64,000 nucleotides of DNA from Bacillales bacterium UBA5348 (lineage in GTDB: Bacteria; Bacillota_I; Bacilli_A; RF39; UBA660). The notes under the pieces are model-generated. The model worked only from the letters and a program-made list of their open reading frames with translations. It made no database searches and was not told the DNA's origin. The first letter of the stretch is position 1, and each line of letters opens with the position of its first letter. The translations under genes and the position numbers were made by a program. The DNA lies in the NCBI GenBank assembly GCA_002411005.1, contig DHQC01000003.1, positions 4,086 through 68,085 on the forward strand, given 5' to 3'. Of the stretch, positions 38,067 through 64,000 are shown one piece after another.

Positions 38067-39278
38067 TTAGTTCATTAACTCTTTCATAACATTCTTGTAT
38101 TCTTCTACGCCCTCTTGATCAAAAGGATTAACGTTTTCTAGAAAACCACTTATATAACAAGATATCATAAAGAATTGGAATAAATAACCTACTAATTCTT
38201 CATTTAATTCTTGAATATTAATAACATTGTTTAAAACTCCACCCTTTAAATGAGCTATTGATGTTGCTTTAGAGGCAATATTATTTATATCATTTAGAGA
38301 TTTTTTATATTGTTCTAATTCAAGGTCGTTATTAGATCGTTCAACATTTAAGACCGTTTCAAACAGTATTTTATTTCCTTGTTGAACAAATTGTCCTAAT
38401 GAATGTAAATCTCTTGTATTGATAAATGATACTGGTAAAATACCTTGTTCATTTTTACCTAAAGATTCACCATATAATTGTTTTAACCATTCAGTAAAAG
38501 CATATAACTTTGGTTCATAAGCAACATAAGCTTCAACTGTTTTTCCTTGCTCATTTATAAGTTTTCTAATTACAGCATATTTAATTTGATTGTCAAGATT
38601 ATTACTAGCCTCTTTAGCGCCCTTATAAATATTTCTTATATTAATATTAGAAACAGCCATCGGTAACAAACCAACAGGAGATAAAACAGAGTATCTGCCT
38701 CCTATATCACTTGGCATAATAAATGATTTGTATCCATGGATATTTACTTCTTCTCTTAAAGAACCATTATGTTCATCAGTTGTAATAATAATTCTTTTCT
38801 TTAACTCAGATTCATCATATTTTTCTTTCATTAAATCCATAATGATTTTATATGACACTAAAGTTTCTAAAGTAGAACCAGACTTTGATATAACATTAAC
38901 GATTATACGCTTGTCTTTTATAATATTGATTAAATCATGATAATAATCACTAGATAAATTATTTCCTACGAAATATATTTTAGGATTATTTGTTTCATTA
39001 TAGAAATAAGGATTTAAAGCTTCTATACCTGCTAAAGCACCTAAATAAGAACCACCTATTCCTATCACGATAAATACATCACAATTATTACGAACAAATA
39101 AAGAGGTCAAATTAATATCTTCAACTAATTCTTCATTAAAAAGGTTGTCAAGATTATACCAACCTAACATATCACCTTTTCCTAATGAATCTTTTATTGA
39201 GGATACTTTAGCTGTATATTCTTTTAGTTGATCCTCACTTATGAAATCTTTGGTATAAGTATCAAAATCAAATCTCAT
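38067..39278 (-). CDS. pgi: Glucose-6-phosphate isomerase
   Basis: 403 aa. PGI family signatures (GIGGSYLG, SKSGSTLET). Its start ATG overlaps the stop of the upstream giant gene (TAATGA). Confidence 0.85.
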   Translation of the reverse strand: MRFDFDTYTKDFISEDQLKEYTAKVSSIKDSLGKGDMLGWYNLDNLFNEELVEDINLTSLFVRNNCDVFIVIGIGGSYLGALAGIEALNPYFYNETNNPKIYFVGNNLSSDYYHDLINIIKDKRIIVNVISKSGSTLETLVSYKIIMDLMKEKYDESELKKRIIITTDEHNGSLREEVNIHGYKSFIMPSDIGGRYSVLSPVGLLPMAVSNINIRNIYKGAKEASNNLDNQIKYAVIRKLINEQGKTVEAYVAYEPKLYAFTEWLKQLYGESLGKNEQGILPVSFINTRDLHSLGQFVQQGNKILFETVLNVERSNNDLELEQYKKSLNDINNIASKATSIAHLKGGVLNNVINIQELNEELVGYLFQFFMISCYISGFLENVNPFDQEGVEEYKNVMKELMN

Positions 39279-42200: not shown

Positions 42201-45200
42201 GATTTACCAAAACCAACAAGTATATAAAGTTTTACTTTTTCTTTAGCTTTAATCGTTATTCTTTTTCTAATACTCATTATTGGATCAAGTGACGCTCCTG
42301 TTAATTTAGATAAATCCTTTTTGTTAACTATAAGATCAGGATTTGATAATGTTCTATTACGACCAATAAAGTTCGCTCTAGAAGTTTCATAAAGAAATGA
42401 ATCATATTTTTCATCTTCCATAAACATTCTATTAATTACATAATATCTAGTATTTCCTTTTGTTCTAGATTTTCTACTAAAGATTAATGATGATGTACCC
42501 TGATCAATCTCACTTAAAATAGTTAAGCCATTAAATGCTCTATGAGCAACATCTTCATCATTACGACTCATAATAACTTCACCATAAGAAGTAACTTCTA
42601 ATGTAACATCATTATTTGAATTGTTTTGAAAGGTTACTTTTCTTAATTCAGCATTATAATCTTTTACAACCGTAATTTCCGTACTAGTTATAATATTATC
42701 ATCTTCTCTTAGATATTTAATACGGTCTGAAGCGAAAGTTACCTTATAATTATTTGGTTTAACATTTAAAGGAGCATAGGTATTAGACCACACTTTATTA
42801 TTATTAAGATTTCTAATATATAAGAATAAACCATAGTCATCATCACTGACTTTCCTAAATCTATTTATTTGAAGATTCTTATATTTACTAAAACCATTAC
42901 CTCGATCATTTAATAAAACTGAATAAAAACCATTTGATAAAACACCAAGTTCAGATATTTGATTTATAGTATCTACTTCTCGCATATCATTTTCTTGTTT
43001 TTCTTTTGAATATTGATATTTTTTATATTTAGCAATCTTCAAATCAATATAAGTTTTAATTTGAACTTTTTCTTTAAGAAGCATCTCAATAGATTGAACA
43101 GTCTTATCATCGTGGAAATGTTCTTGTATAACATTATCTTTCAAATAATTAGTAAGACTTGCTAAAATCATACCTTGATGATGAGCATAATAATTTTTAA
43201 TAACAACATCATCATCGTAATCATAAGCTTCAAAGAAGCCATATTTTCCATACATATTTAGTTTCTTTAGTTTGTTTATATTATCATATACTTCTCTATC
43301 ATCAATCCCAATAGCCATGATTGAACTATATGGAGATATAACAATAGGATAAGAAGCACTCTCTTGAAATTTTAAATATGGAATACCAAATGAATTATAT
43401 TTATAGTTTTGAGAATCATCTAATTCATTATAAGCAGATTCTGATATACCCCAAGGTAGATCTGGATCTATTTCTCTAATAAACTCTCTCTGAGCAAAAT
43501 AAGCATAGTAATAGGTTTCATCTAACAAAGTATGTTGATAAGTCTTCATAAAGATTAACGGCATAAAGTATTCAAAAGCAGTTCCAGACCAAGAAGCTAC
43601 ACCTTTATAACGTTTATACTTAGTTAAAGCTTTGTCTAAACAAAACCAATGTTTATATGGGACATTTCCCTTCGCAATAGAAATAAAACTTGTAAGTCTA
43701 GCTTCTGATGCAAAATTATTATAATGATATGAAAGCAATGTTTGTTCACTATAATTATAACCAATACTAAAGACGTCTAAATCTTTATTATATAATTTAG
43801 TGAAATCCATTTCTTCGATTAACTTTTCAACACGAAACAAAGTCTCCCTATTTCCTTGTTTTTCTAAGAAACTCTTAGCAACATATAAGCACGCTAATAA
43901 ATTACCCGTATCGACGGTTGATATAAAATATGGATGCATTTTTCTCATTGTATAAATGTTATACCAGTTATATAAAAGACCATTCCATTTTTCTAACTTT
44001 TCAACGCTTTTTACAATATTACTAATCATTGTCACAGCTTTATTACTATTTATTAAACCTAACTCAAAGACCGATACAACACTAACGATAGAGAATCCTA
44101 TATTAGTAGGAGATGTTTTATGATCGACCTTTTCTTCTCTGTTTAATTGATAATTGTCAGGAATTAAATAATTATATTCTTCACAAATTAAATCATCAAA
44201 ATAACTCCATGTTTGTGTAGCAACATTCATTATCTCAGCTGTTTCTCTCTTATCAAGATCTTTGTTATCCTCTACTAAATTACGACTAATTAAGAACAGT
44301 AAAACAGGAGCTAAAAACCAAATAATTGCAATAACACAAGCAAGTTCAATCTCAGTAGGTTTAAAGATAACTGCTAAAACAATTAATAAGACAGCACAAA
44401 GATAATTTGTTCTAAAAGCTTTCATATATGTAGATAAATTATTTTTAAGTGTCTTTTCAACCTCTTCAGCTGTAATCCAATTAAGTAATCTCTTTTTACT
44501 TATAAACATACGATATAAAGCTTTTATAATCGAATCAATATATAAATAAGCTTCATAAGGAAGAACTGCTAAAACAATTAAAGATTTATTTATAACAGCA
44601 AAAACACCCTTTATTAAATTAAGATAATACTTTAAGAACATATCATATTTATTTCGATATAAAATCTTGGAAATTAAGTAGAAGAAGATTGGAATCATAA
44701 TTATGATTGATACTAAAATTAAATAAGCAGAAGCATTACCATTGCCAATCGTAAAACCATAGAAAATAAGTAACAGTAAGAAAGGACTTAATAAACTTCT
44801 TCTTAAATTATCAAAGATCTTCCATTTAGAAAGAATTGATATAGGATTATTAACAGTTTCTCCCTTAGCATTTTTAACTTTTTTCTTAAGCCAACCAATT
44901 ATTTGCCAGTCTCCTCTATTCCAACGATGATGTCTTGAAGCATCATTTAAATAAGCGCTTGGATAATCATCAAATAATTCGACATCATTAATAAAGCCAC
45001 ATCTTAAATAATTACCCTCTAATAAGTCATGACTTAAAATAAGATTGTTAGGAAAAGCATCACCTAAGACTTGATCAAAGACCTCTAAATCATAAATACC
45101 TTTACCAACAAAACTACCCTCATTAAAGATATCTTGATATAAATCAAATGACGCTGTGGTATATATATCTAAACCACCTAAACCAGCAAATAATTGAGAA

Positions 45201-46975
45201 TATTTTGATTTACTAGTAACCTCAACATCGACATTAATTCTGGTTTGCATAATCCCATAACCACTTACAACCTTGTCTTTCTCTTCAGATAAAACAGGTC
45301 TATTAAGAGGATGAGCCATCGCACCAATCAATTTAAAGGCCGTATTTAGTACTAATTTAGTATCTGTATCTAATGTTATAACATACTTAATAGGAACATT
45401 AAGATTACTAAAAGTATGACAATTAAAATATTCTTTCTTTTCTTTATCCGTTAATTTATTTAATAACAATTTATTAAAATGATGAAGAGCTCCTCTTTTT
45501 CTTTCAAAACCCAAGAAACATTCTTCACCCTCATTATAAAAACGATTACGATAAACAAAATAGAAAATATTCTTACCATATTTCTCATTTAATTCACTAA
45601 CTTTAGAAAGCCCAGCCTCGATGATTTCTTTATCTACTTCAACATCTTTAACCTTCTCACTCGTACAGTCTCCTAGTAAGGTAAAATAAAGATTATCTGT
45701 TTTATTAGATAAATAATAAAGCTCTAAACTATCAAACATTTGTTGTACTTTCTTTTTATTACTAAGAAGCGTTGGTATTACAACCATCGTACTAAATTCC
45801 TTAGGCAAGCCATCATCAAACTTCACTTTAAATAAGCTGTTAACATTATCATAATGCATTAATATTTGAGTAATAGATTCAATAACTAAGCCACTAATAG
45901 GTACTAATAAAATAAAGAATGATATCATACCCGCATGTTTTGCAATCTCAAACGATAAAATGAAAGTTAATAATAAAATAACTAAAATATAGATTCTAGC
46001 TCTAAACATATAATTCTTTGGTTTGGATAAATACCAACCTACATGTTGTTTCTCTTTATTAGCAGTTTCTACAATCTCTTTAGTATATTCATATTCACTT
46101 ATGTTTCTTTTTCTAGCATTTAAGATTATTTTTTCGCGATATTCTCTCTTACTATTATCAAAGATATTATTATAAACATTAGCATTTTCACTTATCAAAG
46201 TCTTTTCTGCATAATTTGTATTTTTATATAAATCTTCAATCTTATATTTAGAAACTTTCTTTAATGAACCAAATAAATTAATCATTAAAAAGTTATCACT
46301 AGCCATTTCATTATGTGACTGTTCAATTAACTCTCTTAATGATAAATTTTCCTTTTTTAATAATTCATTTAATTTAACAAAGGCTGCATCAGCTAAAACA
46401 CCTAATTCTTTTAATTTATAATTAAGTTCTTCAATATAATAAGGATGTTTTATCATTTCCTCATCGATATCTATGTATTTTTCTAATTCAAAAGATTCAT
46501 CACCTATGTTATTCGCAACCACAGTAAAAAGATGATCAACATCAGCTTTTTCATTTAGTCTCTCATCTAATCTTTTACATAATACATTTAATTCAGAAAT
46601 TAATACCACTTTTATATAAGTATATATTACATTGATTTCATAATAAGAAAAATAATCTTTTGTTTCTTCTTGATAAATATTTAATTTATCTATTAAAGAT
46701 GGCATTTTAACTTGAAAATCATTAGTCTTAAGAATGTTATATATTAAAGCATATAGCGCTTTCTTTCTTTTACCTTTCATTTGTTTCATTACTTTGCTAA
46801 GATATTCATCACTAATATTTTTTTCTTGTTCACTAATTATATAATAATTATCAATAAGCCATTCATTAATACCACCAATACTTACATTTTCTTTGGTCTT
46901 CCTTATTAACTTTTTATAATATTCGGTAATTTCTCGCATTTCTCTTTTAAAATTTATTAATCCCACTCTACTCAT
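39278..46975 (-). CDS. Giant multidomain glycosyltransferase-glycoside phosphorylase (GT84-like + GH94-like); cyclic beta-1,2-glucan synthase (Cgs/NdvB/ChvB)-like
   Basis: 2565 aa. N-terminal cytoplasmic region, TM cluster, a GT domain with DxD (ITLDTDTKL) and a (Q)xxRW-like RHHRWNRGDWQ motif, a second TM cluster, a central (alpha/alpha)6-like region, and a C-terminal GH94-type domain (HWWHEE..., GQYTHAALWY, GRGGWTWYTGSASW). Confidence 0.6.
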   Translation of the reverse strand: MSRVGLINFKREMREITEYYKKLIRKTKENVSIGGINEWLIDNYYIISEQEKNISDEYLSKVMKQMKGKRKKALYALIYNILKTNDFQVKMPSLIDKLNIYQEETKDYFSYYEINVIYTYIKVVLISELNVLCKRLDERLNEKADVDHLFTVVANNIGDESFELEKYIDIDEEMIKHPYYIEELNYKLKELGVLADAAFVKLNELLKKENLSLRELIEQSHNEMASDNFLMINLFGSLKKVSKYKIEDLYKNTNYAEKTLISENANVYNNIFDNSKREYREKIILNARKRNISEYEYTKEIVETANKEKQHVGWYLSKPKNYMFRARIYILVILLLTFILSFEIAKHAGMISFFILLVPISGLVIESITQILMHYDNVNSLFKVKFDDGLPKEFSTMVVIPTLLSNKKKVQQMFDSLELYYLSNKTDNLYFTLLGDCTSEKVKDVEVDKEIIEAGLSKVSELNEKYGKNIFYFVYRNRFYNEGEECFLGFERKRGALHHFNKLLLNKLTDKEKKEYFNCHTFSNLNVPIKYVITLDTDTKLVLNTAFKLIGAMAHPLNRPVLSEEKDKVVSGYGIMQTRINVDVEVTSKSKYSQLFAGLGGLDIYTTASFDLYQDIFNEGSFVGKGIYDLEVFDQVLGDAFPNNLILSHDLLEGNYLRCGFINDVELFDDYPSAYLNDASRHHRWNRGDWQIIGWLKKKVKNAKGETVNNPISILSKWKIFDNLRRSLLSPFLLLLIFYGFTIGNGNASAYLILVSIIIMIPIFFYLISKILYRNKYDMFLKYYLNLIKGVFAVINKSLIVLAVLPYEAYLYIDSIIKALYRMFISKKRLLNWITAEEVEKTLKNNLSTYMKAFRTNYLCAVLLIVLAVIFKPTEIELACVIAIIWFLAPVLLFLISRNLVEDNKDLDKRETAEIMNVATQTWSYFDDLICEEYNYLIPDNYQLNREEKVDHKTSPTNIGFSIVSVVSVFELGLINSNKAVTMISNIVKSVEKLEKWNGLLYNWYNIYTMRKMHPYFISTVDTGNLLACLYVAKSFLEKQGNRETLFRVEKLIEEMDFTKLYNKDLDVFSIGYNYSEQTLLSYHYNNFASEARLTSFISIAKGNVPYKHWFCLDKALTKYKRYKGVASWSGTAFEYFMPLIFMKTYQHTLLDETYYYAYFAQREFIREIDPDLPWGISESAYNELDDSQNYKYNSFGIPYLKFQESASYPIVISPYSSIMAIGIDDREVYDNINKLKKLNMYGKYGFFEAYDYDDDVVIKNYYAHHQGMILASLTNYLKDNVIQEHFHDDKTVQSIEMLLKEKVQIKTYIDLKIAKYKKYQYSKEKQENDMREVDTINQISELGVLSNGFYSVLLNDRGNGFSKYKNLQINRFRKVSDDDYGLFLYIRNLNNNKVWSNTYAPLNVKPNNYKVTFASDRIKYLREDDNIITSTEITVVKDYNAELRKVTFQNNSNNDVTLEVTSYGEVIMSRNDEDVAHRAFNGLTILSEIDQGTSSLIFSRKSRTKGNTRYYVINRMFMEDEKYDSFLYETSRANFIGRNRTLSNPDLIVNKKDLSKLTGASLDPIMSIRKRITIKAKEKVKLYILVGFGKSREQVMEIVNEYKDEFSIDRAFDMATVLNNIRTKYANLNANQMRLYNTMLKYIFQSLPSTEERKKLLASNQLSQEGLWKFGISGDWPIILIEIDEIEDIGFVKEALQAYEFYKVRALAIDFIIINNNQDINEKAISEHINLLLYQINNSNNFEGIPGDVFLVSSSNISKEERVLLNLVASISLNASSSSSFAEQTYNLIDEVKLISNKNEDAVSLEVALPKDVELYNGYGGFTNVGREYILDKIDTPTPWVNVIANDNFGTIVSNNMGGFTYAYNSREFKLTSWSNDSTRDPRSENIVINNQSFKPSLVKHGFGYSTFYSKTKEYEAFVKVFVARNDNVKFYEINIKNNLKTKQMIKVDLVLSMVLGVTEELTSRFISSSFDKKNNCLYVENKYNTTFNDASVFVSATEPIIEFNDSDIINKSVTVNVEVEASSNKTFSFMLGCDNVSASLKKYNNEAINNEFLTVTKYWDKLLSTITVSTPDKTFDYALNGWALYQTYASRLLAKAGFYQVGGAIGFRDQLQDVMGVVYSDPSFTRNQILTHAKHQFKEGDVLHWWHEEIMFGSRTKFTDDYLWLVYVTYEYLKVTGDFSILDEKVPFVDGEKLTIIESEKGIRYRYIDEEDTLYGHLKLSIVKALSQMGRHGLPLMGSGDWNDGMNRVGHKGRGESVFVGFFLYDILQKVSAISRKYNDKDFAKLCLEKRDVLGEALKKNAWDGSWYLRAYFDNGDSLGSRNNLECQIDLLCQSWSVISNFAADDKKALLFGEVEKRLVDKQNKIIKLLTPAFKDTNNNPGYIKDYVAGTRENGGQYTHAALWYILALLKDGKADLAYEYYQMINPINRVSSKVVADVYKVEPYVIAADIYSNRDHLGRGGWTWYTGSASWAYKIGLEDILGFNKVGDTLTLNPRINKDWEGYEINYTYLNTKYIIKVENKNHIASGKIAVVLDNMPVKDNVIKLVDDKKEHRVIITMKEDV

Positions 46976-47066: not shown

Positions 47067-47348
47067 TTATCTTAATTTAAAAACTAGGTTTTCTTTTAAT
47101 ACTTTACTACGGCCAACTAATTCTTTATTATCCCACCCTATGCATTTACTGCCGTTATCACCAGTTTTTTCATAAGGTGGTATAGGACAACCCTCATTTA
47201 TACAATTAAGACAGTTTATGCCAAATAAAGCACGTTTAAGACTTCGATATTCAGTTATAGACAATTGAGCAGCTGCTTTCATGTAGAATTCACTTTCATC
47301 TTCAACAATATTTCTGATAATTTCAAGCAATTTCTTTTCCTTTGACAT
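47067..47348 (-). CDS. Small Cys-rich protein of unknown function (paralogue A)
   Basis: 93 aa, helical N-terminal half. The C-terminus reads GINCLNCINEGCPIPPYEKTGDNGSKCIGWDN...GRSKVL. It is 58% identical to paralogue B. Confidence 0.55.
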   Translation of the reverse strand: MSKEKKLLEIIRNIVEDESEFYMKAAAQLSITEYRSLKRALFGINCLNCINEGCPIPPYEKTGDNGSKCIGWDNKELVGRSKVLKENLVFKLR

Positions 47349-47418
47349 GTTTAAAAACCCTCCTAAGTTAATTACATTATAGCACGCAACTATATATTTG
47401 TGTAAATTTCAATTATCT

Positions 47419-47448
47419 AAAAGGACTGCAATTACTTGCAGTCCTTTT
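47419..47448 (-). terminator. Rho-independent terminator after Cys-rich paralogue B (overlaps its stop codon)
   Basis: A 12-bp stem aaaggactgcaa/ttgcagtccttt with loop ttac, in AT-rich flanks. Confidence 0.6.
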
Positions 47449-47728
47449 ATTTTAATTTTAATATATTTCTCTCTCTTAAAACCTTACTTCTTCCAACATA
47501 TTCTCTATTTTGCCAACCGATACAACCATCACCCGCATCACCATGTTTTTCATATGATGGTACTGTGCAACAGCCATTCGTACAGTTATAACATCTCATT
47601 CCAATTAAAGCTCTTTCTATATATTGATATTCTTCAATGGATAACTGATCCGCTACGGCTATATAGAACTTTCTTTCATTTTTAATAAGATTTCTAATAA
47701 TCTCAAGCAATTCTTTTTCCTTATACAT
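47447..47728 (-). CDS. Small Cys-rich protein of unknown function (paralogue B)
   Basis: 93 aa. MYKEKELLEIIRNL...GMRCYNCTNGCCTVPSYEKHGDAGDGCIGWQNREYVGRSKVL. Confidence 0.55.
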   Translation of the reverse strand: MYKEKELLEIIRNLIKNERKFYIAVADQLSIEEYQYIERALIGMRCYNCTNGCCTVPSYEKHGDAGDGCIGWQNREYVGRSKVLRERNILKLK

Positions 47729-47795
47729 ATCAAAACCTCCTATTTATTTTACATTATAACATATATATAAATTTCAAGTAAATTCTTAACCAACT

Positions 47796-47823
47796 AAAAA
47801 GACTGCAATCACTTGCAGTCTTT
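47796..47823 (-). terminator. Rho-independent terminator after the 124-aa membrane protein gene
   Basis: The aaagactgcaa-tcac-ttgcagtcttt hairpin is a near-copy of the 47419 terminator. Confidence 0.6.
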
Positions 47824-47839
47824 ATTAGTATCAATTAAA

Positions 47840-48214
47840 TTATTTCTTACTTTTTACTTTTTCATCTTTTTTATTAATAAAGAACATTACGCCACCAACA
47901 ATAAGCATGTTAGCTAAAGCTACATATAGAGATAAATACTTATAATAATCACTATTTTCATTAGATAATTTATAATTATCATATTCTAGTTTACAACGTT
48001 GATCTTTTGTTTCATCTGTTAAGTCTTTATCCTCCATATAATACTTACAATTAGCAATTTTATATTGCTCATATGTATAATTTCTACTTGGTTCCTTCAA
48101 TACCAATTCAATGATACTACTACTGACAACTACAGTAGCACCAATAAGCCAGATTAGTAAGATAGCATTAGTAATTTTAAAAATAATTTCCTTGTCTTTA
48201 CTAAATAAATACAT
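47840..48214 (-). CDS. Small two-TM membrane protein, unknown function
   Basis: 124 aa with two hydrophobic helices at residues ~15-40 and ~95-115, a charged loop and a basic tail. Confidence 0.45.
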   Translation of the reverse strand: MYLFSKDKEIIFKITNAILLIWLIGATVVVSSSIIELVLKEPSRNYTYEQYKIANCKYYMEDKDLTDETKDQRCKLEYDNYKLSNENSDYYKYLSLYVALANMLIVGGVMFFINKKDEKVKSKK

Positions 48215-48286
48215 TTATCTTCATCTCCTCTATTATCATTATATATGATAATTAATTTTTATACAATATGTTTCATTTATACAAAG

Positions 48287-50377
48287 TTATACCTGATTGG
48301 CAAACTTTTTTTCAACATTTTTGTATTCTTCTATTTCATTAACAAAAATTGATTGTTTACTTTTTGGAACTAAGAGATATACTTTATTTTTTGTTCTAGT
48401 TAAAGCCACATAAAAGAGTCTACGTTCTTCAGCATAATCTATTGATTCATCATTTTTTGGTCTTATTAATTTTACTAATGGCTCATCTTCAATTTTAGAT
48501 GGAAAGCCATATTTCTCATCTGATAAATTCAATAATATACAATGATCACATCCTAATCCTTTAGCTTTATGAATTGTTAAAAATTTCAAATTAGCTTTCG
48601 GATACTTTTTTGATGTTATCCTTTCACCAATTATATTAAAGAGATTATCATTTTGAATCGTATATATATCTTTTCTATATCTCCCTAGAAGCAAGATTTT
48701 GCTTTTAGGATGTCGGGAATAAATATGATTAATTATATCGTTTACAATTTTAGATCTTTGAATATCTGCTTTTCTAAAATCACTATCATCATAAATAATT
48801 ATCTCTACAGGATTATTTAAATGTTTACTTGATTTTAATTTCTTCTTAACTTGATATTCATTCTTTAAAATAAACTCACCAGCTATATCTATTAGTTCCT
48901 GACTATTGCGATAAGTGTTTTCTATTGGAACACTTTCAGCATTTTCTAAATTCTTATCAAAATCTTTAAATAAATCTATTCTAGCTCCAGAAAAACCAAA
49001 GATTGATTGCCAATCATCACCTACAGCCATTATTTTAGCATCAAATAATTTTGACATTCTTTCAACCAGATTAAACCTTTGACTAGAAATATCTTGGTAC
49101 TCGTCAATAATTAAATATTTATAATCTACTCCCAAGCTTTTCTCTTTCACATTTGGCATAACAGTATATGCTTTTATAATCATGTCATTAAAATCTATCT
49201 TTTGCATTTCTGCTAATTTCTTTTGATAGTTAATATAAAAGTCCCTCATCACTATTAATTGATCTTTTAAAATGCCTGTATTTTCTTTTGTTAGATTATC
49301 AAAATTATCAACATTAAAGTTCCTTTGTTTAAAAAGATTAATAAAGGGAATTAGCATCTTTTCAATAAATGTGTTTATATAACCATCTTTATTTGTATCA
49401 CGTAAAGTAGTAAATATTTCTTCATCACTAAGGCGATTAAATTGATAACCCTTTTTAATCAATTGGTCTTTTAAATGACTTAGATATGTTCCGTCTTTAT
49501 ATTTAGACTGCGTTATAATAAAAAGGTTTTTATTATATCCCTGGTTATAAAATTCCGTTTTTCTTTCCATCGTTTTGAGATATGATCTTAATGTCTCTTC
49601 GTCATACATATAATTATTTCCTTCTTGATCTACCCCAAAATGTTCAATATAATTTTCTTTTCCAAGTTGAGATATAAAAAAATCTGGTCGTAGCAATTTC
49701 TTTGGATCATTGTATTTTCTTTCATATTCATAATCTATTCCATTCTTATAAAGGAAATTAGCGATATCAACTTCCTCTTTCGAAGCTAGATATTCACCTC
49801 TTATTGATTTTTTATATGCTCTTCTCTTCTTTATTTGACTGTGATTATATGTTTTTAAATCAAAACCACTTTTTATCAGATTTTCATTGTAAATACTATT
49901 GTGATATTCTTCAAAATTGGAAGAGTTCTCCCACCCTTTACCAAATCTTAGAAACTTACTAAAAGAATGCTCAAATAACTTGAACTTTTCTTTATCAACA
50001 AATAACTCATCTTTTATATAATTAGAAAAAATGTTATATTGCATTTTTTCGTCTACTATTCCATTGAAGTTTTCTCCACTAGCTCTTATTATTTTCAAAC
50101 CTAAGCTATGAAAAGTATGAACATCTACTCCTTTTAATCCGAATTTATCATGAAGAGTTTTTTCGATTTCTTCTGTTACTTTTTTCGTAAAAGATAAAAC
50201 TGCTATTTCACTTTGTTGATATCCACATTTATCAACCAAATATTTAACTTTTGCAATCATGGTTGTTGTTTTACCACTACCAGCCCCAGCAACAACTAAC
50301 AGATTATCAGCATCATTTAAAATAGCTCCCCTTTGTTGTTCATCCAATTTTATATTTGGATCAACCTTTTCAAACAT
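48287..50377 (-). CDS. UvrD/Rep/PcrA-family SF1 helicase with a ~250-aa domain inserted between motifs Ia and II
   Basis: Motif I VVAGAGSGKTT and motif II IIDEYQDIS, plus later helicase motifs (TIHKAKGLGCDHCIL; VALTRTKNKVYLL). The insertion between them contains an E..D...EYE...K pattern (EEVDIANFLYKNGIDYEYERKY...LRPDFF) suggestive of an embedded nuclease-like fold. Confidence 0.7.
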   Translation of the reverse strand: MFEKVDPNIKLDEQQRGAILNDADNLLVVAGAGSGKTTTMIAKVKYLVDKCGYQQSEIAVLSFTKKVTEEIEKTLHDKFGLKGVDVHTFHSLGLKIIRASGENFNGIVDEKMQYNIFSNYIKDELFVDKEKFKLFEHSFSKFLRFGKGWENSSNFEEYHNSIYNENLIKSGFDLKTYNHSQIKKRRAYKKSIRGEYLASKEEVDIANFLYKNGIDYEYERKYNDPKKLLRPDFFISQLGKENYIEHFGVDQEGNNYMYDEETLRSYLKTMERKTEFYNQGYNKNLFIITQSKYKDGTYLSHLKDQLIKKGYQFNRLSDEEIFTTLRDTNKDGYINTFIEKMLIPFINLFKQRNFNVDNFDNLTKENTGILKDQLIVMRDFYINYQKKLAEMQKIDFNDMIIKAYTVMPNVKEKSLGVDYKYLIIDEYQDISSQRFNLVERMSKLFDAKIMAVGDDWQSIFGFSGARIDLFKDFDKNLENAESVPIENTYRNSQELIDIAGEFILKNEYQVKKKLKSSKHLNNPVEIIIYDDSDFRKADIQRSKIVNDIINHIYSRHPKSKILLLGRYRKDIYTIQNDNLFNIIGERITSKKYPKANLKFLTIHKAKGLGCDHCILLNLSDEKYGFPSKIEDEPLVKLIRPKNDESIDYAEERRLFYVALTRTKNKVYLLVPKSKQSIFVNEIEEYKNVEKKFANQV

Positions 50378-50498
50378 TTCATCAAAATACGTTTTATTTT
50401 CAACTAACTTTTGTTGTAGAATTATTTCGCTAGAATTTTCTCTATTAAGTGAGTTAATATGATCACCTCCAATTAAAACAATTGTTTTACTTAAACGA

Positions 50499-52370
50499 TT
50501 ACAAGTTGTTAAGTTTTTCTTTTAAATAGTTTTGTAGATTTTTATCTACGCAATATACATAACAACCTTTCATTCCCCTTGTCATTAGAGTTTTATATGT
50601 ATTCTTTATTATCTTGTCAGATACTTTTAGTGCTTCCTCTGGATTCCTATTATACATTGCTTTAATACCAAATAATGATTTATCAGTGCCCGCCCTTTTT
50701 GTGAAATCTGTTACTATTTGACCGTTTTCATATCTTATATCTTCACCTATTATCACACCAACATAATCGAATTCTAATCCTTGGCAAGTATGAATGCAAC
50801 CAATTTCTTTAATAGAGTCAGAATCTATTGCCCAAGTACTACTATTAGCTAAATTCCAGCTCATTCCAAAGTTATGTTCAGGTATAACAACATCATGAAT
50901 TTCACTATTGTTTTTAGCATTACTAATCCAATTCCAACAATATCCAGCGACCATTCTTGATTTATTGTTTACATCGTTTTTTTCGGATATTAATTCTTTT
51001 AATTCATTTGGATCGTCAAGCACCTTGAAATCATAATCAAAATCAAAATTATAATTAGCTGTTTCCCTAATATCTAAAACATTATCTAACCAATTTAGAT
51101 AACCATCAGACCCATTACATCTAAATTGTGATTCCAATTCTACCACTTGTATTTCCGCATCTAATTGCTTTGCATATTTTTCTATAACATCCAAACTACC
51201 AATATCTGAAAGAGTTACTTTTTGATTCTCATCTAAAAAAAATACAGAAAATTTTGAAGCATGTATAATTTCTTTAATTTGATTCTCACCCTTGTTTTTA
51301 AACATGCCTGATTTGGCATTTAATCTATGTGCCTCATCCACGATCAATGCATCAAATATATTTTTTTCGGAATCCACATACATTCCAGAGCCTTTAAATA
51401 AGTTCTTTATGTAACTAGCTTTAAAATTACCTTTTAATCTATCATAAAAAACATTTCTAGGTGCAGCATTCTTAGTAATATAATTAGTAACCATATTTTT
51501 ATTTGTTAATTCAACTAATAAATTAATGGCCAAAACCGACTTTCCAGTACCTGGTCCACCATTTACTACTAGCACCCTCTTTTTTTTATCATTATAAGAC
51601 TTATTAGCCAAATCTAAGGCTGTCTCATATACTACTTTTTGCTCATCAATCATAACAAACTCTTTGTTACCATTTAACATGTTCTTTAATGAATCTTGCA
51701 GTCTTCTTGAAGGCCTGATCTTACCGTTTTCTATTTTATATAACAGTTCCTTATTATCACCGTATGTAATATATTTCTTTATAAATTCACGCAGTTTAAG
51801 TACATCACCCATACCAAATAATGGAGCATCATCGATATACTCTTTATACATTTCGTCCACTAACGCATCAGTTGGAGTAATTTTATAATTATGTAAATAT
51901 GCACAAGGATACAAGTTAATTAATTCTTTTTGAACCGATTCGTTAAAATCCATTATTAAAGAAGCATACGACCAAGCCTGATAAGAGGGGTGAGTTACCT
52001 CTCTAAACCCTCCACCAACAAAGGTTTTAACGAGGCCATCCCTTCCCTCAACTCTAGCGCAAGTATCCCACTGCTTTAATTCAATTATTATTACAGAATC
52101 CTTATTATTTTTATCATACCCAGACAACATGAAGTCAACTCTTTTTGAAGTTGATGGAATATTAAATTCAATTGCAACACCAGAATCATCAGGTATTTCA
52201 TTATCATTTAACACTTTATACATATATTCCATCGAATTCTTCCAAGATTTGATTTGAGCTTCTCCACTTCTTCCAAAAAATTTTTGATATTTTTCATGAA
52301 TCTTTCTGGTTATATTATCAGTTAAAACATCATTAATAAATCCTTGTTTAATTCCCTCGTATACTAACAT
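50499..52370 (-). CDS. PD-(D/E)xK nuclease-like N-terminal domain fused to a DUF2075/SF1-type P-loop helicase (Nhi-like nuclease-helicase)
   Basis: The N-terminal region RVDFMLSG...VIIIELKQW matches a PD-(D/E)xK-like D...ELK motif. The C-terminal half has Walker A VNGGPGTGKSVL and Walker B/DEAH IVDEAHRLN, with later SF1 helicase motifs (TIHTCQGLEFDYVGVI, MTRGMKGCYVY). Confidence 0.65.
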   Translation of the reverse strand: MLVYEGIKQGFINDVLTDNITRKIHEKYQKFFGRSGEAQIKSWKNSMEYMYKVLNDNEIPDDSGVAIEFNIPSTSKRVDFMLSGYDKNNKDSVIIIELKQWDTCARVEGRDGLVKTFVGGGFREVTHPSYQAWSYASLIMDFNESVQKELINLYPCAYLHNYKITPTDALVDEMYKEYIDDAPLFGMGDVLKLREFIKKYITYGDNKELLYKIENGKIRPSRRLQDSLKNMLNGNKEFVMIDEQKVVYETALDLANKSYNDKKKRVLVVNGGPGTGKSVLAINLLVELTNKNMVTNYITKNAAPRNVFYDRLKGNFKASYIKNLFKGSGMYVDSEKNIFDALIVDEAHRLNAKSGMFKNKGENQIKEIIHASKFSVFFLDENQKVTLSDIGSLDVIEKYAKQLDAEIQVVELESQFRCNGSDGYLNWLDNVLDIRETANYNFDFDYDFKVLDDPNELKELISEKNDVNNKSRMVAGYCWNWISNAKNNSEIHDVVIPEHNFGMSWNLANSSTWAIDSDSIKEIGCIHTCQGLEFDYVGVIIGEDIRYENGQIVTDFTKRAGTDKSLFGIKAMYNRNPEEALKVSDKIIKNTYKTLMTRGMKGCYVYCVDKNLQNYLKEKLNNL

Positions 52371-52372
52371 AA

Positions 52373-52699
52373 TTATTCTCCTAATTTATTGTACTTAGTA
52401 CTTACCCCTTTAGATTTTTCAACAGGATATTTTAATTTACTTTTTTCTAACTTATCTAAAATAATTTGATCTAAATCTACATTTAATTTATCTGCTAATA
52501 AGATGCAATAATTAGCAACGTCGGCAAGTTCGTCGCATACTTCCTCTTTATCAAAATTACTGTTCCATTGAAAACATTCTAATAATTCTCCAGCTTCAAT
52601 AGAAATAGATTTAGCTAAGTTTTCAGGGCTATGAAATTGATCCCAATCTCTTTCCTGATTAAAATTAAGTATTTGTTCCTTTACTTCCATGTTAATCAC
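52373..52699 (-). CDS. MazG-like nucleoside triphosphate pyrophosphohydrolase (all-alpha NTP-PPase, YpjD-type)
   Basis: 108 aa. EAGELLECFQW...DELADVANYCILLADKLNVDL...KYP are the metal-binding EExxE/D motifs of MazG-type NTP-PPases. Its start lies 3 nt after the stop of the nuclease-helicase gene, so the two are operonic. Confidence 0.65.
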   Translation of the reverse strand: MINMEVKEQILNFNQERDWDQFHSPENLAKSISIEAGELLECFQWNSNFDKEEVCDELADVANYCILLADKLNVDLDQIILDKLEKSKLKYPVEKSKGVSTKYNKLGE

Positions 52700-52852
52700 C
52701 TATTTATATTATATCATATAAAAATATAATTTCTAAGCTTTTGTAAATTTGTGTTCAACAAAAAAGATATGCCTACACATACCCTCTTCTCTTCGTATTC
52801 GATTCTACAAGACTATAATCAAAATAATTTTAATTATTTATAACATCGTCAA

Positions 52853-53431
52853 TTATTCCTTCAGAACATCTTTTATTATTTTTCTTATTTCAACAATTCG
52901 CCTCTTCTCAAATTCAGGATGATCCATAAACCATTTCATATTTAAGGGGGACGGATGTGGCAACACCAAAGCCTTTTTACCATTTAAAACATTATCCTTA
53001 AATACTAAAGTAGCAAAATCTTCATTAGGAAACAAATATTTTGCAGCATAACTTCCAACAATGACATATAATTTACATTTAACAAGTTCCAGTTCCTTTT
53101 TTAGCCATAAATCCCGACAGTTTTTAGAAGGTGGATTATCTTTACCGCTTTTGTTTTTACCTGGATAGCAATGACCAACAGAGGTAATATAAAAATTGTC
53201 TTCATTATAAAACTCTTCATCGGTTATTTGATACCATTGATACTTTAATCTTTCACCACTTGCATCATTAAATGATCTTAATGTTAAATGAACATTTTTA
53301 GATGGTGCTTGTGAAATGTGCATTATTTTAGAATTAGTTTTTCCAAATGTAACAGGATGCGGGGTAAAACCAAAACGTTCTGCACATAAACGGCATTGTT
53401 TAATTTTTTCCTTTAATTTTTCAAGTTCCAC
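52853..53431 (-). CDS. Uracil-DNA-glycosylase superfamily protein (family 4/5-like)
   Basis: 192 aa. N-terminal CRLC pair; a motif-A-like SQAPS; the motif-B hallmark of the UDG fold, LVLPHPSPLN. Confidence 0.6.
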   Translation of the reverse strand: MELEKLKEKIKQCRLCAERFGFTPHPVTFGKTNSKIMHISQAPSKNVHLTLRSFNDASGERLKYQWYQITDEEFYNEDNFYITSVGHCYPGKNKSGKDNPPSKNCRDLWLKKELELVKCKLYVIVGSYAAKYLFPNEDFATLVFKDNVLNGKKALVLPHPSPLNMKWFMDHPEFEKRRIVEIRKIIKDVLKE

Positions 53432-53596
53432 TTTTACTCACCTCAAATCGTACTTATAGTATTATCATTTTTTATTAAAGTATATCAAAATCACATAATA
53501 ATTAAAGTGCTATCAAAACCAGTGTGTTACAAAAAGCCACGCAATTTCATATACTATAGTATATATTTTTGTTAAAAATAGAAAGGTGGTTTTATT

Positions 53597-54322
53597 ATGG
53601 AAACTTATACGGTTTTGTCAGGGGATACTATGTGGCGAATTGCTAAGAAGCATGAAATTGGATTAAACGAATTATTGACGGCTAATCCTCAGATTACAAA
53701 TTCAGCTCTTATCCTTCCAGGACAAATAATTAACATTCCTGGTAACAACGCATCAACTTATACAGTTTCGCCTGGAGACACTATGTGGAATATAGCAAAA
53801 AAACACGAGATTGGATTAAGTGATTTGACGGAAGCCAATCCTCAAATTGAAAACCCTTCTTTTATTCTTCCGGGACAAACAATCAATATTCCTAATGGTA
53901 CTAGTACTCCCAGCACTCCTAGTACTCCTAATGATATAAGAGCATTAGAAAACGAGGTAATTAGATTGGTTAACATCGAGAGAGCAAGAGTCGGTCAACC
54001 AGCATTAACCGAAAACAATGAAGTAAGTCGTGTCGCCAGAATTAAATCAAATGATTTTATTGAGAACAATTATTTTTCTCATAATTCCCCTACTTATGGT
54101 ACTCCATTTGAGATGCTTAGATCTTTCGGAATTAATTTTTCTGCAGCTGCAGAAAACATTGCACGAGGACAAAGAACTGCTGCTGAGGTCATGAACAGTT
54201 GGATGAATTCATCAGGTCATAGAGCAAACATTCTAAGTTCTACGTATAATCAAATTGGTGTAGGTGTTGCAAGAGCTAATGATGGAACTTTATATTGGAC
54301 TCAAATTTTTATAAGAGATTAA
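53597..54322 (+). CDS. Secreted 2xLysM + CAP/SCP (YkwD-like) domain protein
   Basis: Two LysM repeats (YTVLSGDTMWRIAKKHEIGLNELLTANP...; YTVSPGDTMWNIAKKHEIGLSDL...), a T/P/S linker, then a CAP domain (FSHNSPTYGTP...GHRANIL). A GAAAGGTGG SD precedes the start. Confidence 0.8.
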   Translation: METYTVLSGDTMWRIAKKHEIGLNELLTANPQITNSALILPGQIINIPGNNASTYTVSPGDTMWNIAKKHEIGLSDLTEANPQIENPSFILPGQTINIPNGTSTPSTPSTPNDIRALENEVIRLVNIERARVGQPALTENNEVSRVARIKSNDFIENNYFSHNSPTYGTPFEMLRSFGINFSAAAENIARGQRTAAEVMNSWMNSSGHRANILSSTYNQIGVGVARANDGTLYWTQIFIRD

Positions 54323-54494
54323 TATAGAATACTATATAATAAATAACAATAACTTTATAGAAAAAGACTTTCCAATTATTTGGAAGTCTTTAAATTATTA
54401 ATATCCGCTAAAGATTCAAGCTGATAAATCACTACATAAAATACGTACTTCTTATGTACTGTTATTTTAAATATGATATTATATTTTTAAGTTA

Positions 54495-55040
54495 TTAGTT
54501 TGTTTTTGGTTTCAAAACTTTAGTAATTTGCTGTTCCATTAATGGTCTAGCAAATTGTTCTTCTAAAGTTAAAACACTACTTTTATATCTATTATATGCA
54601 AATTGATAATCTCCATTCTTTATTGCATTTACACACACCTTCACAACATTTTGATAAATATAACTATATATTGAATTATTGTTTTCAATCTTATTAATTC
54701 CTTCTACTATAATTGGCGCAGTACTATAATAATAATCTATATCTTCTTTTGACACAAAACTATCTCTAAAATTTCTAAGTATAGTAAGTTCCTCACAATC
54801 ATCATTAAATTTTTCTCGAAAGTGCTTAATACATGCAGAGGTTAAATAGCAGTTCCCTTCTGTTGTTGTTTTATCACCATCTGTTTTTTCGTTAATGTTG
54901 AAAGTTCCTTTTTCATAATCAATATTTATATGTGTTGAATTATGCTCACCTCTAGGATCCCTATCATATATATTTACATGTCCTTTCTCAGCATCATTAT
55001 TAACATCAATCCATACTCCTTCTTTATTTTTTTTAGCCAT
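54495..55040 (-). CDS. Hypothetical protein (downstream gene of a two-gene cassette), unknown fold
   Basis: 181 aa. The His/Asp-rich N-terminal half reads GHVNIYDRDPRGEHNSTHINIDYEKG. The C-terminal half reads GNCYLTSACIKHFREKFNDDCEELTILRNFRD. Its start overlaps the stop of the upstream ORF by 8 nt. Confidence 0.4.
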   Translation of the reverse strand: MAKKNKEGVWIDVNNDAEKGHVNIYDRDPRGEHNSTHINIDYEKGTFNINEKTDGDKTTTEGNCYLTSACIKHFREKFNDDCEELTILRNFRDSFVSKEDIDYYYSTAPIIVEGINKIENNNSIYSYIYQNVVKVCVNAIKNGDYQFAYNRYKSSVLTLEEQFARPLMEQQITKVLKPKTN

Positions 55041-55365
55041 TGTTTATCCCCCTCATTTCTAAAATTCTTTCCATTAGTTCACTAAATCCGAATTGCAAAT
55101 CTTCCGCAAATATAAAAATATCAACTTTTTCATAACATTCATTAGCAAAATCAACTATTTCTTTTTCGCTAAATTTAAAATCTATTTTATCAATATTTTT
55201 GTGCATCAGATAATTCTCATATTGGTTAATAAAATCCTCAAGGTATTCACTAGAAGTTTGTCTTATTTTTTCATCAACAGTCTTTTTTTCAATGCATAAT
55301 GCTGAAGCTATTATTTTTCTGAACAAATTAACAATTTCATCAAAATTATTTACTTTTTCTTTCAT
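55033..55365 (-). CDS. Hypothetical small acidic helical protein (upstream gene of the two-gene cassette)
   Basis: 110 aa with no recognisable motif. An AAAGGTGA SD is present. A 7-bp-stem hairpin (gtggtga...tcaccac, 55387-55411) lies just upstream. Confidence 0.4.
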   Translation of the reverse strand: MKEKVNNFDEIVNLFRKIIASALCIEKKTVDEKIRQTSSEYLEDFINQYENYLMHKNIDKIDFKFSEKEIVDFANECYEKVDIFIFAEDLQFGFSELMERILEMRGINNG

Positions 55366-55678
55366 TTTTTCACCTTTCTAGAAAAAGTGGTGAAAAATGT
55401 ACAATCACCACTTTAATTCCTGTCAAATTTTTATCGGATAAATGGGTGATTTTTTTCACTTTGCACCTTATTACTTCTATAATCATATTAACAAAATATA
55501 TAATACTATTCAACTATTTATCAAATGTTATTTTTATTTGGTATATTTTAATAACCATGTAAAGGATTCAAATTTGTTTTTATCATTATTCTTATAAAAA
55601 TAGCTCCCTTCAGTTTTTTAAAGTTATATTTATTATACAACTTTCTGTCCAACTTTTGGAAGCCATTTTATTTCAACT

Positions 55679-55757
55679 TGGTGTCCCCTGGGGGATTCGG
55701 ACCCACGACCCACTGATTAAGAGTCAGTTGCTCTACCAACTGAGCTAAGGAGACACG
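55679..55757 (-). tRNA. tRNA-Lys (anticodon CUU)
   Basis: The reverse complement folds as a cloverleaf: acceptor GTCTCCT/AGGGGAC, D-arm GCTC/GAGC, anticodon stem ACTGA/TCAGT with loop CTCTTAA (anticodon CTT), T-arm GTGGG-TCCGAAT-CCCCC, discriminator A, encoded CCA. The T-loop has C at position 55 and a U50-C64 mismatch. Confidence 0.7.
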
Positions 55758-55767
55758 TAATACACTA

Positions 55768-55844
<77 letters not shown>

Positions 55845-55948: not shown

Positions 55949-57130
55949 TTAAAATTTTCTTATTTTTCCTTTAGCGCCTTTTAAACCGTTATAATTTTGT
56001 AAAATGTTTGTTTCAAATGAATATATCATCTTAGTTTTTCTCTTATAATCTTTAACAGCTAAAGAGATTAAATCATCTAATAGAGTTGTATAGTTCTTAC
56101 CGACTGGTTCCCATAAATAGAATGATAATGATCCTGGGATGGTATTTATTTCATTTATATATACTTTATTCTTTTTCTTATCAATTAAGAAATCAATACG
56201 ACAGACACCTGCTGAATTAAGAACTTTAAATGCTTGTTTTGCTAAATCTCTTACTTCTTTTCTCATTTCATCATCTATACTAGCAGGAATCTTTCTATTA
56301 GTAGAAACCATTCCTTTTGATTTGCCACCCTTTGAATTACCTAAATATTTATCTCTATAAGTTAAGAATTCATCAGCACTTATTACTTCTTCTATTTCAC
56401 TTGTTTGTTGATATTCATAATTACCTAAAACACTACAATTAACTTCAACTAAGTTTTCAACTACTTCTTCAACAACAATCTTAGGGTCATATTGCATAGC
56501 CTCTTCAATTGCAATTTCAATATCTTCTATTTTCTTAACTTTACTAATACCTACACTACTCCCTAATTTTGAAGGTTTTACTATAACCGGGAAAGTTAAT
56601 TTCTTTATTTTATCTATTACAGCTTTTGAATTATCTTTATATTCAGAATCAAAGAACCATTCATATTTAGTAATAGGCATTTTTTCCGCTTCAAATATTT
56701 GTTTCATAAATATTTTATCTTGACCTACGACAGAAGCATAAAGATCACTTCCTACAAATGGAACACCAACTAAATTTAAATATCCTGCTACGGTGCCATC
56801 TTCAACATTAACACCGTGGACAATTGGTAAAACAATATCTATTTCTTCAACAACTCTTCTGAATCCCTTTAGATTTTGTAAAACACATTTACCATCTTTA
56901 TTATATAAAACAACCTTTTTAGCATAACGTTTCAAATTATCTAAATCTTGATAATTCTCTATCTCCTTTAAGAGATTACCAGTATACCATTCTTTTTCTT
57001 TTGTTATATAAATAGGGATGATTTCATATTTATCACTATCTAATGCTTTCATTGCTTGAACTGCTGAAATAATACTTACTTCATGTTCAACAGTTTCTCC
57101 CCCGAAAATAACACCAACTCTTAATTTCAT
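55949..57130 (-). CDS. ddl: D-alanine--D-alanine ligase
   Basis: 393 aa. ATP-grasp fold with N-terminal MKLRVGVIFGGETVEHEVSIISA and the Ddl-family core. It lies immediately downstream of murF. Confidence 0.85.
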   Translation of the reverse strand: MKLRVGVIFGGETVEHEVSIISAVQAMKALDSDKYEIIPIYITKEKEWYTGNLLKEIENYQDLDNLKRYAKKVVLYNKDGKCVLQNLKGFRRVVEEIDIVLPIVHGVNVEDGTVAGYLNLVGVPFVGSDLYASVVGQDKIFMKQIFEAEKMPITKYEWFFDSEYKDNSKAVIDKIKKLTFPVIVKPSKLGSSVGISKVKKIEDIEIAIEEAMQYDPKIVVEEVVENLVEVNCSVLGNYEYQQTSEIEEVISADEFLTYRDKYLGNSKGGKSKGMVSTNRKIPASIDDEMRKEVRDLAKQAFKVLNSAGVCRIDFLIDKKKNKVYINEINTIPGSLSFYLWEPVGKNYTTLLDDLISLAVKDYKRKTKMIYSFETNILQNYNGLKGAKGKIRKF

Positions 57131-63928: not shown

Positions 63929-64000
63929 TGGTGCGGGTAAAGGGACTTGAACCCCCATGGATTGCTCCACTAGATCCTAAGTCTAGCGCGTCTACCAATT
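63929..64000 (-). tRNA. tRNA-Leu (anticodon UAG), class II with long variable arm; 5' end truncated by the window edge
   Basis: The reverse complement reads ...GCGCTAGA-CTTAGGA-TCTAG-TGGAGCAATCCATGG-GGGTTCAAGTCCC-TTTACCCGCA-CCA. Anticodon stem CTAGA/TCTAG, anticodon TAG, extra arm, T-arm GGGTTCAAGTCCC. Confidence 0.7.

Follow-up and report, generated by a model that had tools for sequence, protein, structure and literature searches.

What do the genes that follow two adjacent tRNA genes in the genome of Bacillales bacterium UBA5348 do, and do they belong to a single system? The stretch of 64,000 nt analyzed here (contig DHQC01000003.1, positions 4,086 to 68,085; hereafter the window) carries between 47.0 and 55.7 kb a block in which an initial annotation had singled out four adjacent genes: a UvrD-like helicase with a nuclease-like insertion, a nuclease fused to a DUF2075 helicase of superfamily 1 (SF1), a MazG-like nucleoside triphosphate (NTP) pyrophosphohydrolase and a uracil-DNA glycosylase (UDG)-like protein. 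All ten open reading frames (ORFs) of the block were scanned with Pfam, NCBIfam and PADLOC. The genes are present where they had been placed, and Pfam agrees with the family assigned to each of the four. We read the block as a variable, defence-type hotspot behind tRNA-Val and tRNA-Lys; its core would be a mobile operon of two genes, the MazG-like gene and the DUF2075 gene, which the UvrD-like gene extends locally to three. As to whether this module is a system directed against phages or other mobile genetic elements, we consider the chances evenly balanced.

The larger protein of the core pair is predicted to be a single chain composed of an N-terminal PD-(D/E)xK-type nuclease and a DUF2075 SF1 helicase, as the initial annotation had proposed by pointing to the Nhi-type architecture. 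The helicase part belongs to PF09848 (DUF2075/SLFN-g3_helicase, Table 1), with the Walker A sequence GGPGTGKS and the motif II sequence VDEAHR invariant in the family alignment. The N-terminal 255 residues matched no Pfam family, and fold matches of this domain to restriction endonucleases were weak; the residues E68, D79, E97 and K99 are invariant in this region. The nuclease-like domain was always found at the N-terminus, in proteins of ∼620–650 aa, across 1865 clusters formed at 50% identity. Longer proteins (785–824 aa), about 8 of the 51 full-length representatives, carry a C-terminal LexA/UmuD-type Peptidase_S24 domain, which suggests control by RecA or single-stranded DNA signals. Representatives listed with this domain are P0362, P0365, P0377, P0382, P0397, P0399 and P0507; a copy from Zetaproteobacteria (L074:8001–10475) has the S24 domain and retains the upstream MazG gene, and the representative P0465 (1068 aa) is a fusion with a PIF1-like helicase.

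The smaller protein of the pair, 105 aa long when translated from the ATG at 52690 that the gene caller chose as its start, scored 70.5 bits against PF12643 (cut-off 27). Its closest solved structures are those of mouse and human dCTP pyrophosphatase 1 (DCTPP1, also RS21-C6; E 4.5e-18), and the metal-binding motif EA.ELLE...E.AD is kept at ≥90% in 50 partner proteins. The sequence thus identifies it as an all-alpha NTP pyrophosphohydrolase of the DCTPP1/RS21-C6 type: the whole domain aligns and the EExxE...ExxD residues are shared, whereas the N- and C-terminal extensions of DCTPP1 are missing from the bacterial protein of 105–108 aa. DCTPP1 prefers 5-modified dCTP as a substrate.

On the minus strand the MazG-like gene lies upstream, and the helicase gene starts 2 nt past its stop codon. 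The order given in the initial annotation, with MazG starting 3 nt after the helicase stop, therefore has to be reversed, while the tight coupling of the two genes that it described holds. The helicase gene is predicted to be translationally coupled to the MazG gene. We counted neighbours at 80 homologous DUF2075 loci, the best 80 of at least 429 matches in species-representative genomes, which span Bacillota, Saccharibacteria, Treponema, Proteobacteria and archaea. A MazG homolog lies no more than 150 nt from the helicase gene at 44 of these loci and no more than 6 kb away at 53, in phyla from Bacillota to Halobacteria, so that the co-occurrence check suggested at the outset turned out positive for this pair. 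Among 50 clustered pairs MazG is upstream in 34 and downstream in 16, and the two genes are co-oriented in all pairs but one. Furthermore, the pairwise identities of the MazG and DUF2075 proteins correlate (Mantel r 0.52; 0 of 2000 permutations as high). Linkage, shared strand and co-divergence of both proteins argue that the pair is inherited and transferred together. Fusions of MazG with the helicase, sought as Rosetta-stone evidence, were not found, the longer variants bearing Peptidase_S24 or PIF1. In RefSeq such pairs are labelled 'nucleotide pyrophosphohydrolase' and 'DUF2075 domain-containing protein'.

The DUF2075 family is patchily distributed, and its relationships point to horizontal spread. 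It is also very large and unusually conserved: more than 8000 protein clusters scored, with 55–80% identity over the full length, from bacteria, the candidate phyla radiation and archaea; the 120 best matches listed were all full length and ≥67% identical, the named sources among the matches listed being Bacilli, Methanosphaera and Saccharibacteria. An identical copy of the window's protein is encoded by a 'Bacilli bacterium' metagenome-assembled genome (MAG) from fermentation and digester metagenomes. The best 80 matches in species-representative genomes include Clostridia, Bacillaceae, Treponema, Zeta- and Gammaproteobacteria, Methanobrevibacter, Woesearchaeota and Methanomethylophilaceae. 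Methanosphaera, Saccharibacteria and Bacilli harbour copies that are 55–70% identical, as do plasmids, and plasmid-borne copies were found in Methanosphaera, Halalkalicoccus, Hymenobacter and Priestia. With only four matches in IMG/VR and four in GenBank phage records, the module does not seem to be typically phage-borne. One phage record of 22 kb, Microcystis phage Mwe-JY31 (PP438423.1, 3849–5705; hit H26), encodes a full-length nuclease-helicase homolog that is 55% identical and annotated as hypothetical.

The genes flanking the pair vary between loci and are often defence-related. A SauUSI-type protein (PLD nuclease, SF2 helicase, DUF3427) is present at 10 of the 80 loci and a small NUDIX gene at 9; at four loci (L010, L024, L036 and L070) both are intermixed with the MazG and DUF2075 genes in variable order, which suggests a super-module of four genes. 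Interleaving loci (L010:4502–7667, L024, L036, L070, L025 and L009) come from Solobacterium, Clostridia, Niallia, Treponema and Virgibacillus. Further neighbours are McrBC, AbiU2-HEPN, NERD-HRDC, HNH and Fic genes, and a Hymenobacter plasmid carries two DUF2075 genes in tandem behind a restriction-modification (RM) system. Pfam and PADLOC scans of 146 sampled neighbours, which yield counts per family only, returned strong matches to DISARM DrmD/DrmA, BREX BrxH, PbeA, HmaA and DpdF as well as ordinary metabolic genes.

The UvrD-like helicase is the third gene of the block to be considered. Pfam UvrD-helicase matched with E 9.5e-45, its 271 profile positions being stretched across residues 11–476, and UvrD_C matched as well. 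PcrA and UvrD can be aligned only at residues 25–104 and 378–525, which leaves a net insertion of ∼200 aa. This insertion is kept across the UvrD-like family, with E201, E202, E219, PDF231–233 and EH245–246 invariant, and it resembles the nucleases Bax1, Vsr and I-Bth0305I. We conclude that it is a genuine nuclease domain, predicted to have a Vsr/Bax1-like PD-(D/E)xK fold, which bears out the nuclease-like insertion seen in the initial annotation. The family is large, with members of 700–870 aa. Some sources name the homologs 'DNA helicase IV'; the Pfam domains are present, and the score against the NCBIfam helicase IV equivalog is 287 with a cut-off of 543. The order MazG–DUF2075–UvrD-like recurs in the nearest relatives (L086–L088 and L131) and, inverted, in one locus from Saccharibacteria (L032), while the UvrD-like gene is missing from L005, L085 and 78 of the 80 genome loci. 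It therefore appears to be a facultative third gene, confined to the closest clade plus the one Saccharibacteria locus. Elsewhere, UvrD-like homologs stand alone, among housekeeping genes, or beside a NUDIX gene and a PLD-helicase gene. A row of the latter kind in a sibling Bacilli MAG (L091:442–14178) comprises a UvrD-like helicase, NUDIX, a PLD-SF2 helicase, a WYL regulator, a Ham1-like ITPase and NTPase_I-T, with a gene for a thymidylate-synthase-like protein of 445 aa and a Fic gene upstream; this cluster is dense in nucleotide-pool enzymes. At L132:5445–14604 a close UvrD-like homolog is followed by a family-less protein of 500 aa, a dimeric dUTPase_2, an NT5C nucleotidase and a dCMP deaminase.

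The site itself is conserved in relatives. Three loci (L098, L099 and L116) with Ddl 69–77% identical keep the order abhydrolase–MurF–Ddl–tRNA-Val–tRNA-Lys and carry unrelated genes after tRNA-Lys. Because relatives share the tRNA synteny but differ in what follows it, the site is best described, on comparative grounds, as a variable hotspot that attracts defence genes. At L116:12433–18772 a HerA-like (DUF87) ATPase and a type I RM system (HsdM/HsdS) follow tRNA-Lys. No integrase was found among the block ORFs, and no att-type direct repeat derived from the 3′ end of the tRNA turned up in a search for one. In a further relative (L085) the pair occurs with a LysM/CAP gene 75% identical to that of the block and, directly upstream of MazG, a homolog of orf181 (55% identity; L085:7017–7502). 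The LysM/CAP gene, the orf181 homolog and the pair being shared with L085, the arrangement is older than the species and is shaped by piecemeal gain and loss.

How could the pair act? In the mechanism that we favour, the nuclease-helicase would load on invading phage or plasmid DNA and degrade it using ATP. Its MazG partner would hydrolyse non-canonical deoxynucleoside triphosphates (dNTPs), most plausibly 5-substituted dCTPs of the kind used by DCTPP1; this could either protect the cell itself, by keeping modified nucleotides from degraded foreign DNA out of host DNA, or starve the phage of modified precursors. The same logic would have its parallel in SauUSI and its NUDIX partner, often interleaved with the module. 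By analogy one might go further and propose a general principle of restriction combined with sanitation of the nucleotide pool, in which small NTP pyrophosphohydrolases (MazG here, NUDIX beside SauUSI) would be dedicated partners of nuclease-helicase restriction enzymes. They would destroy modified dNTPs, whether recycled from degraded modified phage DNA or drawn from phage precursor pools, and thereby either spare the host chromosome self-restriction or deprive the phage of its modified bases. On this view the module, with or without the UvrD-like gene, would count as a new type IV-like system, and its activity would have escaped the published screen for reasons of expression, host or phage choice.

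Several observations weigh against a defensive function. As many as 27 of the 80 loci have no MazG gene in the fetched flanks, so that MazG is not obligatory. The block has the GC content, GC at third codon positions (GC3) and codon usage of its flanks, and the compositional comparison suggested in the initial annotation thus gave no sign of recent transfer; of the island that it had drawn beside the tRNA genes, the variable content at a conserved site remains, and the integrase, att repeats and deviant composition do not. PADLOC fitted no system model to the ten ORFs and returned a generic GajB match together with partial matches to Nhi, AbiO and PDC-S41, the latter three limited to the helicase core (E ∼1e-13 to 1e-15). 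There is also a published test. The phages T2/T4/T6, SPO1/SP82G, PBS1/AR9 and SPR/phi3T cover DNA with glucosylated 5-hydroxymethylcytosine (glc-hmC), 5-hydroxymethyluracil (hmU), deoxyuridine (dU) and 5-methylcytosine (5mC). All of these are included in the panel used by Millman et al. 2022, who assayed candidate systems in E. coli and B. subtilis, with expression driven by the native promoters. Among their 45 candidates, drawn from a screen of genes co-localised with known defence systems, is SG192, listed in Table S2 as 'Pyrophosphatase' from Bacillus firmus with a 98-aa pyrophosphatase and a 643-aa DUF2075 protein; the latter is 55% identical to the protein of the window over the 399 residues printed there. 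SG192 was scored 'x', i.e. no defence, with 26 phages, and the authors point out that unverified candidates may still defend under other conditions (Millman et al. 2022). The earlier statement that the gene combination is no named defence system is thus borne out by PADLOC, but the pair is not unrecognised: it has already been proposed as a defence system by others and is a known, unvalidated candidate. In the collection of papers searched, none treats DUF2075 together with MazG, and no later validation of the pair was found. The idea of action on non-canonical bases, also put forward in the initial annotation, is weakened by the inactivity of SG192 on a panel that includes phages with dU, hmU, glc-hmC and 5mC. 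Owing to this negative test and to the loci lacking MazG, we consider the specific modified-dNTP logic doubtful, and the general principle built on the analogy is to be taken as just as tentative.

A different mode of action would be abortive infection (Abi) of a toxin–antitoxin-like kind, with the nuclease-helicase as a latent toxin and MazG as a regulator that destroys an activating or fuelling nucleotide, the trigger being DNA damage or phage replication. The tight coupling and co-divergence of the two genes would fit, as would the S24 domains of the longer variants, the failed cloning of the related SG193 construct (Millman et al. 2022) and the presence of PF09848 on the Sorek-lab list of Abi/defence Pfams. 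However, a toxin should not persist without its antitoxin, as the helicase does at the loci without MazG, and the position of MazG is not fixed: it occurs upstream or downstream of the helicase, in some cases with other genes in between. DCTPP1-type enzymes, moreover, are house-cleaners of the dNTP pool and have no known role as degraders of signals. We therefore regard this explanation as unlikely.

Still less probable, in our view, is a chance grouping of housekeeping genes, in which MazG would clean the nucleotide pool, the DUF2075 and UvrD-like helicases would serve repair or recombination and the UDG would act as a repair glycosylase. The uniform composition of the block, the housekeeping-like contexts of the UDG and UvrD-like genes elsewhere, the lack of a phage phenotype in the single published test and the bland RefSeq names are all compatible with it. 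The distribution of the pair is sporadic, however, with copies of 55–70% identity across domains of life and on plasmids; its flanking genes are unrelated between loci and often belong to defence, and the genes are missing from relatives that keep the tRNA synteny. These features speak for the defence-type hotspot with a mobile pair at its core. In favour of a defensive role of the pair there are also its choice by Millman et al. 2022 as a candidate co-localised with known defence systems, the listing of PF09848 among Abi/defence Pfams, the validated defence by Nhi and Nhi-like and the NUDIX gene linked to SauUSI.

The UDG-like gene is probably resident and not part of the module. Its product belongs to the UDG superfamily (Table 1) and carries the motifs ISQAPS (motif A) and LPHPSPLN; it does not fall into strict family 4, as the scores stayed below the NCBIfam cut-offs (TIGR00758, 39.8 versus 125.3; NF040953, 45.1 versus 250). 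The cysteines C13, C16, C88 and C105, probable 4Fe-4S ligands, and the HPSP motif are invariant in 13 homologs. The nearest PDB structure is the uncharacterised 3ikb, followed by family-4 UDGs, and the subfamily (∼192 aa) is conserved in Firmicutes. A UDG stands beside DUF2075 homologs at none of the 80 loci, the gene has a conserved non-defence context in three contigs, and in a close relative, whose GH94 protein is ∼72% identical, it directly follows the GH94 gene in the absence of MazG, DUF2075 and UvrD genes; residency is concluded from these three findings. The gap between the UDG-like and MazG-like genes is 153 nt and contains a promoter-like site. A scan of the block for promoters and terminators did not rise above shuffled expectation in this AT-rich DNA, and operon boundaries were consequently drawn from spacing only. 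That the UvrD-like helicase, the nuclease-helicase, MazG and UDG form one system against phage DNA with dU or hypermodified pyrimidines, as the initial annotation had it, is very improbable: all four genes are adjacent on the same strand, have DNA or nucleotide substrates by family assignment and include MazG and UDG domains that DefensePredictor lists among predicted, unvalidated defence domains, but the UDG is absent from the other loci, occurs without these genes in other contexts and is set apart by the gap, the UvrD-like gene is confined to the nearest clade plus one Saccharibacteria locus, and SG192 was inactive against the dU phages PBS1 and AR9 and the hmU phages.

Table 1. Features of the block and its nuclease and helicase domains (window coordinates)
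Feature	Position	Strand	Assignment or basis
tRNA-Val(GAC)	55768–55844	−	ARAGORN and Rfam
tRNA-Lys(CTT)	55679–55754	−	ARAGORN and Rfam
orf110	55033–55365	−	Family-less; 8-nt overlap with orf181
orf181	54495–55040	−	Family-less; cassette with orf110, 54495–55365
2×LysM and CAP/YkwD protein	53597–54322	+	Pfam LysM, CAP; NCBIfam spore_YkwD
UDG-like, UDG superfamily	52853–53431	−	PF03167, E 1.7e-22
MazG-like, first gene of core pair	52373–52699	−	PF12643, E 1.4e-19
PD-(D/E)xK-type nuclease and DUF2075 SF1 helicase (predicted), 623 aa, second gene of core pair	50499–52370	−	PF09848, E 6e-108
N-terminal nuclease-like domain, residues 1–255 of DUF2075 protein	51606–52370	−	E68, D79, E97-x-K99
SF1 helicase/DUF2075 core, residues 264–609	50544–51581	−	Pfam match; invariant motifs
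UvrD/helicase-IV-like SF1A helicase, 696 aa	48287–50377	−	Pfam UvrD-helicase, UvrD_C
Predicted nuclease-bearing insertion of UvrD-like helicase, residues 95–375	49253–50095	−	Vsr/Bax1/I-Bth0305I-like PD-(D/E)xK fold
orf124, predicted membrane protein	47840–48214	−	No family match
orf93b, four conserved Cys	47447–47728	−	orf93a paralog; no family match
orf93a, four conserved Cys	47067–47348	−	orf93b paralog; no family match

The block genes lie between Ddl (55949–57130) and a GH94 protein of 2565 aa (39278–46975), in a window of ∼28% GC. Neither the LysM/CAP gene nor the small ORFs belong to the module; they are resident genes or unrelated neighbours. The LysM/CAP protein scored 178.9 against NCBIfam spore_YkwD (cut-off 171) and is of the spore or cell-wall type. 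For orf110 and orf181 no family reached its cut-off, and their description as an orphan cassette of two genes was correct. The duplicated small genes likewise proved to be two paralogs of 93 aa that are 57% identical and share the cysteine pattern C..C...C...C.GW, each located in a duplicated unit of ∼380 nt with a hairpin (GGACTGCAA..TTGCAGTCC); neither these genes nor orf124 were found at other fetched loci. A homolog of orf181 with 31% identity lies at L101:32–376, upstream of an abhydrolase–MurF–Ddl cluster. The GH94 ORF combines Glycoamylase, GH94 beta-supersandwich and GH94 catalytic domains on one chain and has a 72% identical copy in the relative L126. A third tRNA gene on the minus strand (63932–64000; Rfam, 32.5 bits) is cut by the window end.

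Few DUF2075 gene arrangements are as widespread and as well conserved as the MazG–DUF2075 pair, which spans bacteria, the candidate phyla radiation and archaea; even so, no function has been demonstrated for it, and catalogues of defence systems do not include it. Should it be an immune module, a very common system would be added, and two observations would be explained: the NUDIX neighbour of SauUSI reported in 2011, and the MazG domains that are predicted to be defensive and were still unvalidated in 2026. Human Schlafen group III proteins share the fold of the DUF2075 helicase core, so that the mechanism could also bear on eukaryotic antiviral factors. If the pair is not defensive, its strong conservation across domains still needs explaining.

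Known systems resemble the genes of the block to different degrees. The UvrD-like gene matches GajB models (E 2.6e-48), but its Gabija partner GajA is absent, no GajA/OLD (OLD/Toprim) model matching any of the ten ORFs, and the gene was accordingly not assigned to Gabija. Its inserted domain recalls the archaeal XPB-Bax1 complex by its likeness to Bax1, with the difference that here the nuclease is located inside the helicase and is not a separate subunit. SG192 and SG193 belong to the same two-gene family as the pair of the window, the MazG-like partner in SG192 being 98 aa long, and the copy in the window has the UvrD-like nuclease-helicase as an additional downstream gene. Nhi of Staphylococcus epidermidis (SERP2475) and Nhi-like of Bacillus cereus (Millman et al. 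2022), which are unrelated to each other in sequence, are validated single-gene defences; phages escape the latter by loss of a DNA methylase. Both combine an N-terminal PD-(D/E)xK-type nuclease with a DUF2075/SF1 helicase on one chain of ∼610–625 aa, as predicted here. The sequence does not place our protein in either family: the PADLOC Nhi model matched with E 1.5e-13 at profile positions 198–428 of 470 only, and the alignment with Nhi-like is limited to 164 residues around helicase motifs I–II, at 25% identity. Furthermore, Nhi and Nhi-like act alone, whereas the subfamily of the window usually has a MazG partner. SauUSI, a modification-dependent type IV restriction enzyme for which a conserved NUDIX/MutT neighbour of unknown function was noted in at least 60 genomes in 2011, joins a PLD nuclease to an SF2 helicase and a DUF3427 reader domain and has NUDIX as its partner; the pair of the window has a PD-(D/E)xK-type nuclease, an SF1 helicase and MazG as the partner. 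The DUF2075 protein showed no modification-reader domain, and SauUSI and NUDIX genes are absent from the window and present in related loci. In both cases a nuclease-helicase stands beside a small NTP pyrophosphohydrolase.

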